Positions 47,919-61,084 of a stretch of DNA of 64,000 nucleotides are shown one piece after another (the first letter of the stretch is position 1; every line of letters starts with the position of its first letter). The notes under the pieces were generated by a model. It searched no databases. It was given only the letters and a program-made list of their open reading frames with translations, and was not told where the DNA came from. Source of the stretch: an uncultured Clostridium sp. (GTDB lineage Bacteria; Bacillota; Clostridia; TANB77; CAG-508); contig CATYUF010000002.1 of assembly GCA_958413095.1 (NCBI GenBank), positions 5,439 through 69,438 on the forward strand, given 5' to 3'. Position numbers and translations under genes: made by a program.

Positions 47919-48364
47919 CTAATCTATTTCCTTTTTGCATTTTTCTTCTATATTTTTAAAACCTAAATACCAACTTATTCCATTTCTATCTTCTCTCATT
48001 TGATTCGCTCTTTCCTGTAACTCACAATATGTTTTTGGCATTGGCATTATCACTGGTTGATTTGGAATCCAATTTGCAGCAGTCATTCCTTTACTACATT
48101 CTGATACTTGCAGTGCTTGTATTGTTCTTATTATTTCTGGTATAAATCTTCCTACATTCATTGGATATACAAATATTGTCCTTATTATTCCTCTATCATC
48201 TATTATATATACGTTTCTCACCGTTTCTGTATTACTAATATCATTTGATATCATTCCATATTTTCTTGCTATTTCTCCATTTCTATCTGCTATTATTGGA
48301 AATGATATTTGTATTCCTGTTTTGCAATATATATCATATACCCATGCTAGATGTGATGCATTAC
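47919..48364 (-). pseudogene. 3' portion (codons 81 to end) of a split 1-Cys (Prx6-type) peroxiredoxin gene
   Basis: The minus frame from 48362 reads NASHLAWVYDIYCKTGIQISFPIIADRNGEIARKYGMISNDISNTETVRNVYIIDDRGIIRTIFVYPMNVGRFIPEIIRTIQALQ... with no start codon or SD of its own. It continues the 60800..61084 fragment exactly. Confidence 0.88.
48342..48364. repeat. attL core CCATGCTAGATGTGATGCATTAC
   Basis: Direct repeat of 60824-60846 with a single T/A difference at core position 7. Confidence 0.8.
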
Positions 48365-48430
48365 CAAAGTTACCATTTTTTACACTCTAGGAAATCACAT
48401 TTCCTGAATGTGTTGTTTTGCTTATTCTAC

Positions 48431-50080
48431 TTAAGCACTTTCTATAAATTTCACATTATTTAATTGTTCTTTTATAATGTTTAATTCTGAAAAATTAAAG
48501 TATATATAGATATTTTTAAATTCATCTAATTCTATTTTGTTAATTAATTCAAATAATATTTTTCTGTTTAAATTTTCTTTTTTAAAACTTAAAAAGTTTT
48601 CTATGATTTTATCAATATTCTCTTTATTTTTATTTTTTCGTTTTTTCTCTTTAATTATGCAAATCTTTTCTTCAATACTTTTCTTTTGATTATTTAATTT
48701 TTCTCTTTCTTCTAAAAAAATTCTTGAATACCTAAAATAATCATCATTTGATATAATGCCATTCAAATTATCAAAATACATTTTATCTATTTTTTTTGTA
48801 ACATCTTCAATTTTTTTTATAACATTAGATAAATTCTGTTCTTCTTTTTTTATAATTAAATTGTAATTATCTTTACTTTTTTCATAAATTAATTTCAAAG
48901 CATTTTTATCATAATGTAAAAGGCAAATTTCTTTTATTTGATTAATCACTCTACTTTCAAATTTACTATAATTATAATTACAAGTCCTACATTTTTTATC
49001 TTTCCCCCTTGCTAAAGCACAATCTACATATCCTATTTTTTTCTTTTTACCTCTGTAGCAAATTCTTAACTGCCTTCCGCAATTATGACAAAATATTAGT
49101 CCTTTTAGTAATTCATCATGCTTTGGTGCTGACATACTTTTTCTACTTTTTAAAATTTCTTGTACTTTAGTAAATAATTTTTTTGATATAATCGCTTCAT
49201 GAGTATTTTCAACTCTTATGTATTCGCTTTCAACCTTTTGCTTTCTTTTCTTAACTTTATAAGATACAGATACACACTTATTTTGAACTGTATTTCCAAT
49301 ATAGGCTTCATTTATTAATATCGCTCTTATTGATTTAGGACTCCATGTTGTTCTTTGATGCTTTTGATTTAAATATTTACTAGGAGGATCTATTCCCTCT
49401 TTATCTAAAATGTTTGAAATTTTCTGAACTCCATTTCCTTCTGAATACAGTTCAAATATCTTTTCTATTACATAAGATACATTTTCATCTATTTCTAACT
49501 TATTCTTATGTGTTTTACTTTTTCTATAGCCATATGGTGCAACACTACCTAAGTATTCACCTTTTAACTCTTTTTCTCTTAGTACTCCTTTAATTTTTTT
49601 TGAAATATCTTTTGCATACATATCATTTATAATTGCTTTAAATGGTGTTACATCATTATTTGTACTGTCTATAAATGTGTCTATTCCATCAAGGATTGAA
49701 ACATATCTTACATTTTTTTCTGGAAAATAATTCTCAATATAATAACCTGTTTTTATGTAATCTCTCCCTAATCTTGATAAATCTTTAGTTATAACCATAT
49801 TTATTTTTTTATTTTCAATATCCTCAATCATCCTATTAAAATTTGGTCTATCAAAAGTTGTTCCAGAAATACCATCATCTTTGTATTCATCTATAAATAT
49901 AAGCCTATTTTCCTTTATATATCTTTGCAATATATCCCTTTGATTTGATATACTATCACTTTCTAGCTTGTCGCCATCTTCACGAGATAAACGAATATAA
50001 ATGCCTACTTTGAAAATTTTATTAAACTCTATTCCGATTGCTAAAAACCATTTTTTCACGCTCCCTTTTGTTCCTAGCAA
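48431..50080 (-). CDS. Large serine recombinase (resolvase/invertase N-domain, recombinase domain, zinc ribbon, coiled coil)
   Basis: 549 aa. Catalytic region VGIYIRLSREDGD...SISNQRDIL, ...GISGTTFDRP.F..M, ...KDLSRLGRD, a Cys4 ribbon (CHNCGRQL...C...C..C) and a Lys/Glu-rich coiled C-terminus. TTG/GTG start is uncertain. Confidence 0.92.
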   Translation of the reverse strand: MLGTKGSVKKWFLAIGIEFNKIFKVGIYIRLSREDGDKLESDSISNQRDILQRYIKENRLIFIDEYKDDGISGTTFDRPNFNRMIEDIENKKINMVITKDLSRLGRDYIKTGYYIENYFPEKNVRYVSILDGIDTFIDSTNNDVTPFKAIINDMYAKDISKKIKGVLREKELKGEYLGSVAPYGYRKSKTHKNKLEIDENVSYVIEKIFELYSEGNGVQKISNILDKEGIDPPSKYLNQKHQRTTWSPKSIRAILINEAYIGNTVQNKCVSVSYKVKKRKQKVESEYIRVENTHEAIISKKLFTKVQEILKSRKSMSAPKHDELLKGLIFCHNCGRQLRICYRGKKKKIGYVDCALARGKDKKCRTCNYNYSKFESRVINQIKEICLLHYDKNALKLIYEKSKDNYNLIIKKEEQNLSNVIKKIEDVTKKIDKMYFDNLNGIISNDDYFRYSRIFLEEREKLNNQKKSIEEKICIIKEKKRKNKNKENIDKIIENFLSFKKENLNRKILFELINKIELDEFKNIYIYFNFSELNIIKEQLNNVKFIESA

Positions 50081-50112
50081 TCACCTGCTTAGAAACTATT
50101 TTAAACTGTAAT

Positions 50113-50253
50113 CTAGTTTTTTTCAAGTTTTTTTTGGTCTTTTATTCGGTCTTTTAAATAAATTTCAAATGCCTTACCAATACTTTCATTTATTTCACCT
50201 TTTGTAGAATCAAATATACAAAATATCTTGCCTTCTTCCTCTTGTTCTTTCAT
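50113..50253 (-). CDS. 46-aa hypothetical protein immediately upstream of the recombinase gene
   Basis: Not in the track. My translation is MKEQEEEGKIFCIFDSTKGEINESIGKAFEIYLKDRIKDQKKLEKN. The SD is weak. Confidence 0.3.
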   Translation of the reverse strand: MKEQEEEGKIFCIFDSTKGEINESIGKAFEIYLKDRIKDQKKLEKN

Positions 50254-50428
50254 GCCACACCTTCTTTAAAATATGCTTTTTCTAATATGTATGCTTAAAA
50301 TTTAATAAAAATTATATTGATTTTTTCACATAACAAAAATAAGTGAAAGAGTTTCTTACCCATTCACTTATTTGCTCATAAAATTTGATTTTGTCCTCCC
50401 TGTTTTTCAAAAATTTTTTCAATTCTAA

Positions 50429-50566
50429 TTAGTATCCATACTTCTCTTGCATTTTTTTGAAAACATTCCTTGCATCATGTACTTTTCCTTCTTTATATTC
50501 TTTTTTGCTCTTTTCAAGTTTATTTGAAAAGTTTTCAAAATCTTTAATATTCATTTCTCTTTGCAT
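50429..50566 (-). CDS. 45-aa hypothetical protein (C-terminus reminiscent of small antitoxin/RHH-type proteins)
   Basis: Not in the track. My translation is MQREMNIKDFENFSNKLEKSKKEYKEGKVHDARNVFKKMQEKYGY. No convincing SD. Confidence 0.25.
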   Translation of the reverse strand: MQREMNIKDFENFSNKLEKSKKEYKEGKVHDARNVFKKMQEKYGY

Positions 50567-59615: not shown

Positions 59616-59690
59616 AATTTACCTCCTTTTGAATACAGACAAGGATTTAGACTATCTGTCTAAATCCTTGTCTGTAGTGTTTTCAGAAAC

Positions 59691-60332
59691 TTACTCAGCT
59701 GGATCTGTTAATCCCAAGCTTTCGAAAGATTCTTTTCGATTTCTGCAAGGCTGACAAATTCCACATGGCTTCTCTCCATTTGACACACAAGTCCATGTAT
59801 GTTCAAGAGGAACTTTGTACTCCAAAGCTGTCTTGATAATTTCCTGTTTGTTCTTATAATTCAATGGTGCTTCAATAATTACATTTGGATTGTTTTTTAC
59901 TGCAATCTGAATTAACTGATTCATCATTTTAATAAACTCAGGAGAATTATCTGGGCAAATCCATGGACCTGCTTCGCTACCAATAAAAATCCTTTCAAAT
60001 TCTTCATCAGTTTCTGCCCATGCAATTGCTGCTGTCAAAATACAAGCATTTCTGAACGGAACATAAATCAAATCATCTTCTTCACTTGCTTTAATTCCAG
60101 TATCAGTAATCATTGATATTCCAAGTTTTCCTAACCATGTCATATCAATAATTTTGTGTTCTTTTGCACTATAATGCTGTGCAAAAAACTTCGTGTTTGA
60201 AATTTCCCGCTCAATGTTTTTCTGACCATAGTTAACTGTCAGGAAATACAGTTCGTACCCCCGTGCCTTTGCTATAGCAGCACAAGTTGTACTATCAATT
60301 CCACCGCTGATTGTAATAATTGCTTTTTTCAT
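59691..60332 (-). CDS. queC: 7-cyano-7-deazaguanine (preQ0) synthase
   Basis: 213 aa. PP-loop AIITISGGIDSTT, ...YVPFRNA and a C-terminal Zn motif C....KPCGICQPC..R. G+C is visibly higher than in neighbouring genes. Confidence 0.92.
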   Translation of the reverse strand: MKKAIITISGGIDSTTCAAIAKARGYELYFLTVNYGQKNIEREISNTKFFAQHYSAKEHKIIDMTWLGKLGISMITDTGIKASEEDDLIYVPFRNACILTAAIAWAETDEEFERIFIGSEAGPWICPDNSPEFIKMMNQLIQIAVKNNPNVIIEAPLNYKNKQEIIKTALEYKVPLEHTWTCVSNGEKPCGICQPCRNRKESFESLGLTDPAE

Positions 60333-60439
60333 TCAACCCATCCTTTCTAAGCATTGGTTTTCTTCAACTTATAGTTTCTTGTACACTATTACCATCTTGC
60401 TAAAATCTCAGCCAGATACAAAAAGAAATGTACGGACTT

Positions 60440-60468
60440 ATGTTAACATTTTTGTTGCAATTTGTCAA
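60440..60468 (-). promoter_or_regulatory. Candidate sigma-A promoter for the island operon (TTGACA-17 nt-TAACAT on the minus strand)
   Basis: The minus strand has ttgaca (60468-60463), a 17-nt spacer and taacat (60445-60440), about 105 nt upstream of the queC ATG. Confidence 0.3.
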
Positions 60469-60799
60469 GTCTTTTCCGAGTTTATTACTTTTCCATTTTA
60501 TTCCGTTCCTACTTTCTTCTCTTTTTAATAAGACACACCCTCTTTTCTGTTTTTTCTTCTTTCCCTGTGTCATACCCCTTAAACACGACACACCCAAAAT
60601 TCCAATTTTGCTTTATTTTTCAAGATTTTATATATTGTCAAAGTATCCGCTTTTAACTACCAAAAAAATAACTCAAGTGAACACTTTAGAGGTATCCACT
60701 TTAACATTTTATCTTGATACTATATAATAAAAGATAGAGTTTTTTAAGCTTTATCAAATATATTTTAATTTTTATTTAATCTACAGGTAATTGCTAGTA

Positions 60800-61084
60800 T
60801 TATTCGTTCATTGGTAACTTTAACCATGCAAGATGTGATGCATTACTATCAATACTTAATCCTAGTAATTCAGTATTTAGTTCTTTAAAATATGTATGTG
60901 CTCTTGTAAATGCTATCATTTCTGTTGTGCATACGGGGGTAAAATCTCCTGGATGCGAAAATAAAACCAACCATTTACCTTTATAATCATTTAAACATAC
61001 TTCTCCACAAGTAGTTATTGCATTAAATTCAGGTGCTTTCTGACCTATTTTTACATTTCCATTCATCATTAATTCATAATCCAT
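60800..61084 (-). pseudogene. 5' portion of the split 1-Cys peroxiredoxin gene (87 native codons plus 7 island-derived codons)
   Basis: [87 protein letters not shown], then LKLPMNE*. The [11 protein letters not shown] peroxidatic-Cys motif is present. Confidence 0.88.
60824..60846. repeat. attR core CCATGCAAGATGTGATGCATTAC
   Basis: Direct repeat of 48342-48364. Confidence 0.8.

Follow-up and report, generated by a model that had tools for sequence, protein, structure and literature searches.

Introduction

Tn4451/Tn4453 and Tn5397, elements of clostridia and enterococci, insert and excise via a circular form by means of the large serine recombinases (LSRs) TnpX and TndX, respectively. Tn4451 and Tn5397 use several target sites with a GA crossover and no directionality factor, and they carry either Mob and an origin of transfer (oriT) or full conjugation genes. 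In the case of skin (recombinase SpoIVCA) and SPbeta (SprA/SprB), a coding gene is interrupted by an LSR in an exactly reversible manner; both are prophage-derived, lie in mother-cell sporulation genes and are excised in a developmentally programmed way. SCCmec, a staphylococcal cassette chromosome (SCC) moved by CcrAB or CcrC, and the enterococcal cassette chromosome carry variable cargo at a single conserved site, have no transfer genes of their own and accrete in tandem; rlmH, at whose 3′ end SCC inserts, is not destroyed by it. A further element, gin of Bacillus cereus ATCC 10987, is not a phage; it has three recombinase genes, interrupts the sporulation gene gerE and is excised specifically in sporulation. 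It encodes a 58-kDa serine recombinase, GirC, and a 6.5-kDa protein, GirX, which is often left unannotated (PMC5595907). GirX is required for excision and blocks integration (PMC5595907). The present study concerns a 12.5-kb island in an uncultured Clostridium sp. (contig CATYUF010000002.1, positions 5,439 to 69,438; this stretch of 64,000 nucleotides is called the window, and coordinates given without a locus number refer to it). The island, 48365-60823 plus one copy of a 23-bp core, splits a peroxiredoxin gene (prx). With a probability of roughly 85%, it is a non-phage, non-conjugative integrative island that was inserted at prx codons 80-87 by its own LSR. Its closest published analogue is the non-phage element gin, rather than skin, and Tn4451/Tn5397 and SCC are more distant.

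The split peroxiredoxin gene and its empty sites

The two parts of the gene and the two copies of the core lie as follows.

60847..61084, minus strand: the first 79 codons of the peroxiredoxin gene, ending at the core (5′ part), with an AhpC-TSA/Redoxin match
47919..48341, minus strand: 3′ part of the peroxiredoxin gene (codon 88 to stop), the in-frame continuation
60824..60846, unstranded: core copy at the prx-5′ junction, made of the left part of attB and the right arm of attP (gene orientation)
60830: attP allele A, in the core copy at the prx-5′ junction
48342..48364, unstranded: core copy at the prx-3′ junction, with the attB allele T at 48348

Read on the minus strand, the open reading frame (ORF) 60800..61084 begins with 87 peroxiredoxin codons and runs on through seven foreign ones (LKLPMNE), which gives a truncated product of 94 aa, while the peroxiredoxin continues in frame from 48362 down to the stop at 47919. 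An initial annotation of the window, made from the letters alone, had described exactly this split and had proposed that the two pieces make a protein of about 227 aa. When 61084..60847, one core copy and 48341..47919 were joined in silico, an ORF of 684 nt and 227 aa was obtained, and the rebuilt protein proved to be the database protein P0001, residue for residue. It is 94-100% identical to the 59 intact proteins listed (221-229 aa), and the source records of some of these give them as peroxiredoxins of uncultured Clostridia. The end-to-end comparison with intact peroxiredoxins that the annotation had suggested thus turned out in its favour, also against a solved structure: residues 12-216 are aligned with the 223-aa peroxiredoxin 5ovq (E=3.7e-58), and the break point lies within a motif aligned as DSN(A/F)SH(L/I)AW. 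The product of the split gene has the peroxidatic motif PVCTTE, from which I take it to belong to the Prx6 subfamily. Truncated at residue 87, the peroxiredoxin is presumably inactive.

Uninterrupted copies of the gene, which the annotation had named as the next thing to look for, were found on six contigs of close relatives (L001-L006). They encode P0002, which differs by one residue, and in all six the intact prx is followed by the same 518-aa DAO/Rieske gene as that at 46187-47743 of the window. The rebuilt gene differs from these empty-site loci by 10 scattered substitutions in 684 nt and by no indel. The flanks of the window map to L005 at 5890-6264 and 6239-8419, meeting with a 26-bp overlap. 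The empty site therefore consists of the two flanks joined via one core copy; the insertion is precise and conservative, as it is for LSR elements.

Other samples yielded at least seven more contigs that have the 94-aa junction ORF in exactly this form and, behind it, the same island. An assembly artefact was rejected because the same junction recurs on these contigs. The intact prx (at least 94% identity) is found on about 366 contigs (summed contig counts) and the island on about 8; the island is therefore a minority allele. Empty and occupied alleles are both present within one species.

The 23-bp direct repeat at the break points, CCATGCTAGATGTGATGCATTAC at 48342-48364 and CCATGCAAGATGTGATGCATTAC at 60824-60846, is identical at 22/23 positions, and the coordinates as well as the identity agree with those first annotated. 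In 30 first-order Markov simulations of the window, direct pairs of 23-mers with at most one mismatch were expected at a mean of 0.03 per window, and a chance origin of the repeat was rejected on this ground. Apart from this repeat, the window has real 23-mer pairs of this kind only in two paralogous ABC-transporter modules, located near 24.8 and 39.1 kb.

The recombinase and its clade

The recombinase gene lies close to the prx-3′ junction, its stop being 66 nt from the core.

48431..50080, minus strand: LSR gene, longest ORF 549 aa

In the gene calls of L007, a locus with the same island, the start corresponds to about 50059, giving 542 aa. The assignment as a 549-aa LSR near the island end holds: the protein has all three LSR domains (Resolvase, PF00239, 1.5e-23; Recombinase, PF07508, 3.2e-22; Zn_ribbon_recom, PF13408, 2.7e-06), and the catalytic motif Y28-I29-R30-L31-S32-R33 (YIRLSR) is invariant across 16 homologues. 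It matches the integrase family phrog_95 of PHROGs (1e-99). Its best relative of solved structure is the catalytic domain of TnpX (2.4e-25), and its best annotated relative is TndX, with 36.7% identity. No phage or plasmid record was found with an LSR homologue of more than about 37% identity, and homologues in phage records are at most 35% identical. Among the NCBIfam models, CcrB is the best equivalog match with 118 bits, followed by CcrC with 101 bits, each against a cut-off of 900.

Loci with homologues of the LSR were collected from exact-protein look-ups and from a scan of one genome per species, and prx fragments at these loci were sought by tblastn with the rebuilt peroxiredoxin. A prx fragment was found at 23 fetched loci whose LSR is at least 65% identical over its full length. 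In 22 of the 23, the LSR gene is followed by a prx C-terminal fragment on the same strand that begins at residue 80-82 (at residue 55 in L022). In the 23rd, L026, the contig ends inside the LSR gene and only a prx N-terminal fragment is visible. By comparison, prx adjoins the LSR gene in none of the fetched loci whose LSR is 53% identical or less. A single prx site is used in every locus of the clade with a readable junction, whatever the cargo. The hosts are uncultured Clostridia represented by metagenome-assembled genomes, and the names of samples and isolates suggest rabbit, mouse, wild-mouse and human-cohort origin. The islands range from about 3.8 to 12.5 kb in size, and the cargo varies from island to island.

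An ORF of 309 aa is a recurrent cargo in six sibling prx-targeting islands (L010, L014, L015, L020, L021 and L046; for example L015:8525-9454). It scored as Abi_2, which is abortive-infection-like, in L010 and L015, and was recognized by size and position in the other four. Other sibling cargo includes an enolase/phosphoglycerate-mutase-like set (L017) and a flavodoxin/FGE-sulfatase set (L010).

Some genomes have a second insertion in the same gene. In L011 and L017, the peroxiredoxin is split again at codon ~50, in the active-site motif GDFTPV (L011:205-5222, with junctions at ~345-360 and ~5100-5115; L017:133-4526). The second insert of L011 encodes an unrelated serine recombinase of 523 aa together with a DUF4143 ATPase. 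The peroxiredoxin gene is a landing pad for two recombinase families. In L023:5112-8137, two prx-5′ junctions of the same type (5363 and 8137) stand in tandem ahead of one recombinase gene, which suggests accretion of islands at the prx site.

Attachment sites and predicted crossover

Just inside the core, the two ends of the island carry arms of 10 nt each that are exact inverted copies of each other, as the initial annotation had noticed.

60812..60821, unstranded: island-end arm TGGTAACTTT, inverted partner of 48366-48375 and putative outer recombinase-binding motif of attP
48366..48375, unstranded: island-end arm AAAGTTACCA, an exact match in the window

The first arm is kept as AAGTTACCAA (gene strand) in 11 sibling junctions. 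At the other end, (T)TGGTAA (gene strand) is kept in 21/21 prx-3′ junctions examined and the longer form TGGTAAC in 15/21. When the sibling junctions were aligned, a conserved geometry of attP emerged, TGGTAAC-N16 to the left of a centre and N16-GTTACCA to the right of it. Read on the gene strand, the centre is separated by 16 nt from (T)TGGTAA on its left and from GTTACCA(A) on its right, and the same geometry is seen in 11 sibling prx-5′ and 20 sibling prx-3′ junctions.

In the window, the dyad centre falls between core positions 11 and 12, where AGAT is followed by GTGA. The first reading had put the centre between the same two positions, and had been right to expect an attP with dyad symmetry; the bases that it gave there, GA followed by TG, were wrong, the central dinucleotide being TG. 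About this centre, the reconstructed attP is symmetric at 17/26 positions and attB at 11/26. The sites are thus of the kind known from LSR elements, short and with an imperfect dyad symmetry about a shared, non-palindromic dinucleotide.

At core position 7, T is found in the empty sites, as in the copy at 48348. Therefore, the A at 60830 derives from attP, and the exchange took place to its right, in accordance with the crossover first proposed to the right of the T/A mismatch. The junctions of the siblings share the bases TTCACAT (L010), CAT (L011, L017 and L021) or CA (L015) around the centre. Shorter shared blocks (TTC, CTTC) also persist a few bases left of the centre, so the comparison of junctions alone singles out no one block. 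At the dyad centre, the shared block reads CA in the gene strand and hence TG in the plus strand, at 48352-48353 and 60834-60835. From the dyad centre and the shared bases, the predicted crossover dinucleotide is TG/CA, core T11-G12. Cleavage at TG/CA would also be expected from the established mechanism of the enzyme family.

The conserved backbone

Apart from the LSR gene and the ends, three parts of the island are conserved among its relatives.

50113..50253, minus strand: ORF of 46 aa just upstream of the LSR gene, candidate directionality factor or regulator
60784..60795, minus strand: motif AGCAATTACCTG, in siblings AGCAATCACCTG, conserved within the island about 28 nt from the junction
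60521..60701, minus strand: conserved non-coding backbone module of about 180 nt with an inverted repeat

A small ORF of 45-50 aa was recovered from 16 sibling loci regardless of cargo, and F14, K18, F29 and Y32 are invariant in an alignment of 15 sequences. Among 1.84 billion proteins, it has five representatives, all of 43-50 aa, and it is confined to the clade. Searches of Pfam, PHROGs and PADLOC gave no match for the 46-aa ORF, and neither did a profile search of PDB sequences. Since gin uses GirC together with the tiny GirX, the 46-aa ORF is proposed, by analogy with GirX, to be a recombination directionality factor that would control excision. Three more small ORFs (36, 45 and 47 aa) lie at 50312-50773, between the terminator of the RrnaAD-family gene described below and the 46-aa ORF. 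They have no family match and are kept only in near-identical copies of the island, except that the 36-aa ORF is also present in L011.

In the module at 60521-60701, GTGGATAC occurs as three repeats, and an inverted repeat and a hairpin whose loop is TTTAAGGGGTAT are also present. L011 has the module as well, and so do three islands of a different LSR clade (L031, L041 and L045). The hairpin shows two compensatory pairs, which come from only two independent lineages. No match was found in Rfam or among plasmids and phages. The module may be an oriT-like site, or it may be an operator or otherwise regulatory.

Transfer and decay

The same island occupies the same prx site in L007-L009, where the identity of the host flanks to those of the window is only 81-84%. 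The cargo in L007, on the other hand, is 99.2-99.4% identical to that of the window island. Near-identical cargo between divergent flanks points to a recent transfer between species.

The copies have suffered different losses. In the window, a deletion of 182 bp at 52934/52935 shifts the frame of a gene for an MFS transporter that is intact (383 aa) in L092 and L007; the gene is broken in the window, L090 and L091. The AGCS transporter gene of L007 has lost 302 bp (L007:2386). Both the MFS and the AGCS genes are intact in L092.

The cargo genes and their possible product

All genes of the island lie on the minus strand, co-directional with prx. In the direction of transcription, the cargo and its putative signals are as follows.

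60440..60468, minus strand: promoter-like site upstream of queC, TTGACA-17-TAACAT, TG-extended (consensus match only)
59691..60332, minus strand: queC, 7-cyano-7-deazaguanine synthase (PF06508, 2.2e-50)
58827..59615, minus strand: family-2 glycosyltransferase, GT2 (PF00535, by Pfam)
57972..58724, minus strand: S-adenosylmethionine (SAM)-dependent methyltransferase (Methyltransf_11, PF08241, by Pfam)
56632..57957, minus strand: Na+/alanine-symporter-family (AGCS) transporter, intact here
56570-56598: perfect sigma-70-like promoter before the carbamoyltransferase gene (consensus match)
54827..56470, minus strand: TobZ/NodU-type O-carbamoyltransferase (TobZ match, 6e-79)
54782..54825, unstranded: palindrome of 22+22 nt between the carbamoyltransferase stop and queD, 95% complementary
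54351..54686, minus strand: queD, 6-carboxytetrahydropterin synthase (111 aa by gene callers; the longest ORF extends to 54821)
53701..54351, minus strand: queE, 7-carboxy-7-deazaguanine synthase of the clostridial type (TIGR03963, 263.7 bits, above the cut-off)
53092..53670, minus strand: folE, GTP cyclohydrolase I (above the curated cut-off)
52130..53087, minus strand: MFS transporter pseudogene (ORFs of 54 aa and 243 aa)
52099-52127: perfect promoter-like site of the RrnaAD homologue (consensus match)
50904..52022, minus strand: homologue of the KsgA/Erm-family (RrnaAD) adenine-N6 methyltransferases, 372 aa, with a C-terminal extension of about 150 aa
50831-50863: terminator-like hairpin of the RrnaAD homologue

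The cargo thus comprises ten genes: folE, queD, queE and queC for the preQ0 pathway, and those for GT2, a methyltransferase, a carbamoyltransferase, two transporters and a KsgA/Erm-like methyltransferase. A match of the palindrome at 54782-54825 to mir-302 in Rfam, on both strands, is spurious. Rfam scans covering 44000-64000 and the queC leader yielded no riboswitch; besides mir-302, they gave only a SAM-II match below threshold.

The huimycin cluster of Kutzneria albida has preQ0 genes, a methyltransferase gene and a glycosyltransferase gene, with a carbamoyltransferase gene adjacent (PMC7439116). A survey of 2026 found 7-deazapurine clusters predominantly in Actinomycetota, mostly in Streptomyces (bioRxiv 10.64898/2026.04.15.718813). 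The island has the same enzyme set as the huimycin cluster: the complete preQ0 pathway (FolE, QueD, QueE and QueC), a SAM-dependent methyltransferase of PF08241 and a glycosyltransferase, with the carbamoyltransferase next door. The host differs, being a gut clostridium and not an actinomycete, and the huimycin cluster has no KsgA/Erm-like gene and is not reported to be on a mobile element. By this analogy, the cargo is read as a cluster for the biosynthesis of a 7-deazapurine that is glycosylated, methylated and carbamoylated, with a huimycin-like logic, and with functions for export and possibly for self-protection.

Part of the cluster recurs elsewhere. With 116 members, the family to which the GT2 belongs is narrow; in the five contexts that were read (three proteins of 53-74% identity), the GT2 adjoins QueC, the carbamoyltransferase and an RrnaAD-family methyltransferase. 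A core of QueC, GT2, carbamoyltransferase and an RrnaAD protein of 372-392 aa is found in other gut Bacillota contigs (L095-L099; for example L097:6828-16768 and L098:7200-15692). One of these copies adjoins a gene for a type IV secretion system (T4SS) coupling protein. Another lacks folE/queD and the MFS transporter and has instead a Vut_1-family (PF02592) transporter and an ABC exporter; it also encodes a fusion of GT2 with a radical-SAM domain. Since the cluster recurs in other contexts, it is a conserved unit of which the RrnaAD methyltransferase is a part.

A more specific proposal is tentative. The product might be a novel ribosome-directed 7-deazapurine glycoside against which the KsgA/Erm-like enzyme would protect the rRNA of the producer, the whole being traded on a prx-only cassette with the recombinase and the 46-aa factor. 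Several points weigh against the reading of the cargo as a 7-deazapurine cluster with export and self-protection. The KsgA/Erm-like protein scores below both curated cut-offs, so that a role in self-resistance is a guess. The GT2 (PF00535) differs from the huimycin glycosyltransferase, which is of the GT4 type (PF13439), and no LuxR or other regulator gene is present, although the huimycin cluster has a LuxR regulator. Moreover, the window copy may be decaying, as its MFS gene is a pseudogene, and any product is perhaps not exported via the MFS transporter.

It is also conceivable, although rather doubtful, that the cargo supplies preQ0 for queuosine in tRNA, or serves a 7-deazaguanine modification of nucleic acids, in which case the KsgA-like enzyme, the GT2 and the carbamoyltransferase would act on RNA or DNA. 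TobZ-type enzymes share Kae1/YrdC-like domains with the machinery for t6A in tRNA, which speaks for this possibility, as do the primary nature of the preQ0 pathway formed by folE, queD, queE and queC and the NLPY adenine-N6 motif kept by the RrnaAD homologue. That homologue is, moreover, conserved together with QueC, GT2 and the carbamoyltransferase also in a context that lacks folE and queD. However, neither a tRNA-guanine transglycosylase nor a DpdA homologue was found among the island ORFs (Pfam, PADLOC); an MFS or ABC exporter together with tailoring enzymes fits a small-molecule product, and the huimycin cluster has the same enzyme logic. DNA modification or defence of the Dpd type in particular was rejected because DpdA is absent. 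PADLOC detected no defence system on the island, only matches to QueC and to generic methyltransferase and radical-SAM models.

Nature of the element

That the island is a non-phage, non-conjugative integrative island brought to prx by its own LSR, as the initial annotation had seen in outline, is supported by the junctions, the empty sites and the recombinase domains. The annotation had further called it minimal; the integrative island stands, but the word hides the ten-gene 7-deazapurine cargo. No relaxase, Mob, T4SS, capsid or replication families were detected in the island ORFs with Pfam, PHROGs or PADLOC, which bears out the earlier remark that phage structural, replication and conjugation genes are absent.

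The mechanism may be drawn from what is established for LSRs. The LSR would bind an attP of about 50 bp with dyad symmetry on the circular island and an attB within the sequence coding for DSNASHLAW, cut both sites at the central TG/CA, rotate the half-sites and religate them, leaving two hybrid junctions. The 46-aa ORF would control excision, as GirX does in gin, and transfer from cell to cell would depend on helper functions supplied in trans.

Some observations are less easily accommodated. No excised or circular attP was found in IMG/VR or in the JGI metagenomes with two search patterns. The island was found in two species, yet it encodes no transfer function. The 46-aa ORF may have another role, as TnpX and TndX excise without a directionality factor. 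The sole match to the attP pattern, L094, sits in a high-GC oxidoreductase gene and is a chance match.

The element shares with gin the interruption of a coding sequence by a non-phage element, an LSR of about 58 kDa with a very small accessory protein, a short core centred in an inverted repeat, and the lack of transfer genes. Near-identical copies across strains, implying recent transfer, are also common to both. The likeness of the 46-aa ORF to GirX is one of size and context. In contrast to gin, the island has one recombinase gene instead of three, and its cargo is a biosynthetic cluster. From SCC, which it resembles in its variable cargo, its single conserved site, the lack of transfer genes of its own and tandem accretion, the island is set apart by a recombinase far below the Ccr cut-off, which places it outside SCC, and by the inactivation of its target.

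Among the alternatives, a transposon of the Tn4451/Tn5397 type survives best, but it is improbable. The recombinase alone would insert and excise such an element, and the circle would be mobilized via oriT by a co-resident conjugative element. The closest characterized recombinases, TnpX and TndX, belong to this group, whose members are likewise small cargo-carrying elements of Clostridia; the host is of a clostridial lineage, and the module at 60521-60701 with its inverted repeats could be an oriT. However, an identity of only about 37% to TndX is low, the module is without a plasmid or phage match, and neither a Mob/TnpZ-type gene nor the conjugation genes of these transposons were found on the island. 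The single site in every readable locus of the clade is at odds with the several sites of Tn4451/Tn5397, as is the central dinucleotide, TG/CA and not GA.

Less probable still is a regulated switch like skin or gin, in which a sporulation or oxidative-stress signal would trigger excision and rebuild prx. Excision at the core would restore the prx ORF exactly, the island genes are co-directional with prx, and a non-phage element with an LSR and a tiny conserved ORF recalls gin with GirC and GirX. Against this, skin and gin interrupt sporulation-specific genes, whereas the target here is a Prx6-type peroxiredoxin, a general antioxidant enzyme whose gene is not known to be sporulation-specific, and no sporulation genes were found in the annotated parts of the 64-kb window. 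The predominance of the intact gene over the occupied one, the recent transfer of the island between species, the unrelated cargo of sibling islands (such as Abi_2) and the second hit on prx by another LSR element in some genomes, as on a tolerated landing pad, all speak against a switch. The likeness to skin-type elements drawn in the initial annotation thus found no support, the island being rare in the species and recently transferred and the sibling cargo varied. The double hits and the rarity and recent acquisition of the island are more in keeping with a conserved landing site at which insertions are tolerated than with a developmental switch.

A degraded prophage or phage satellite whose integrase is the sole surviving phage gene is very improbable and was rejected because no phage genes are present: the LSR does match phrog_95 and the carbamoyltransferase a phage auxiliary-gene family, but genes for capsid, terminase, tail, lysis, repressor and replication proteins are all absent, sibling islands of 3.8-7.8 kb equally lack phage genes, attP has no match in IMG/VR, and the LSR homologues in phage records are too distant (at most 35%, as given above).

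Other features of the window

The two paralogous modules mentioned above lie at 23313-27914 and 37522-42236. Each has an FtsX-type permease, an ORF of 255-265 aa, a histidine kinase and an ORF of 220-223 aa. Both have a BceAB-like layout and share several near-identical 23-mers; the Pfam assignments cover the permeases and one kinase only.

Concluding remarks

The current view of how such elements work is unchanged; the island that is preferred here is a well-delimited, LSR-borne, gene-intervening element of a known type. It provides a defined recombinase set (the protein, attP, attB, a predicted crossover and a candidate directionality factor) with more than 20 natural integrations, which is a possible tool for genome engineering. 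At least two unrelated families of serine-recombinase elements in uncultured gut Clostridia have a conserved motif of the peroxiredoxin as their landing pad. Finally, what is read as a 7-deazapurine cluster, of a kind that one survey found predominantly in Actinomycetota, is carried here by a mobile island of small size, which has passed between species in the gut.

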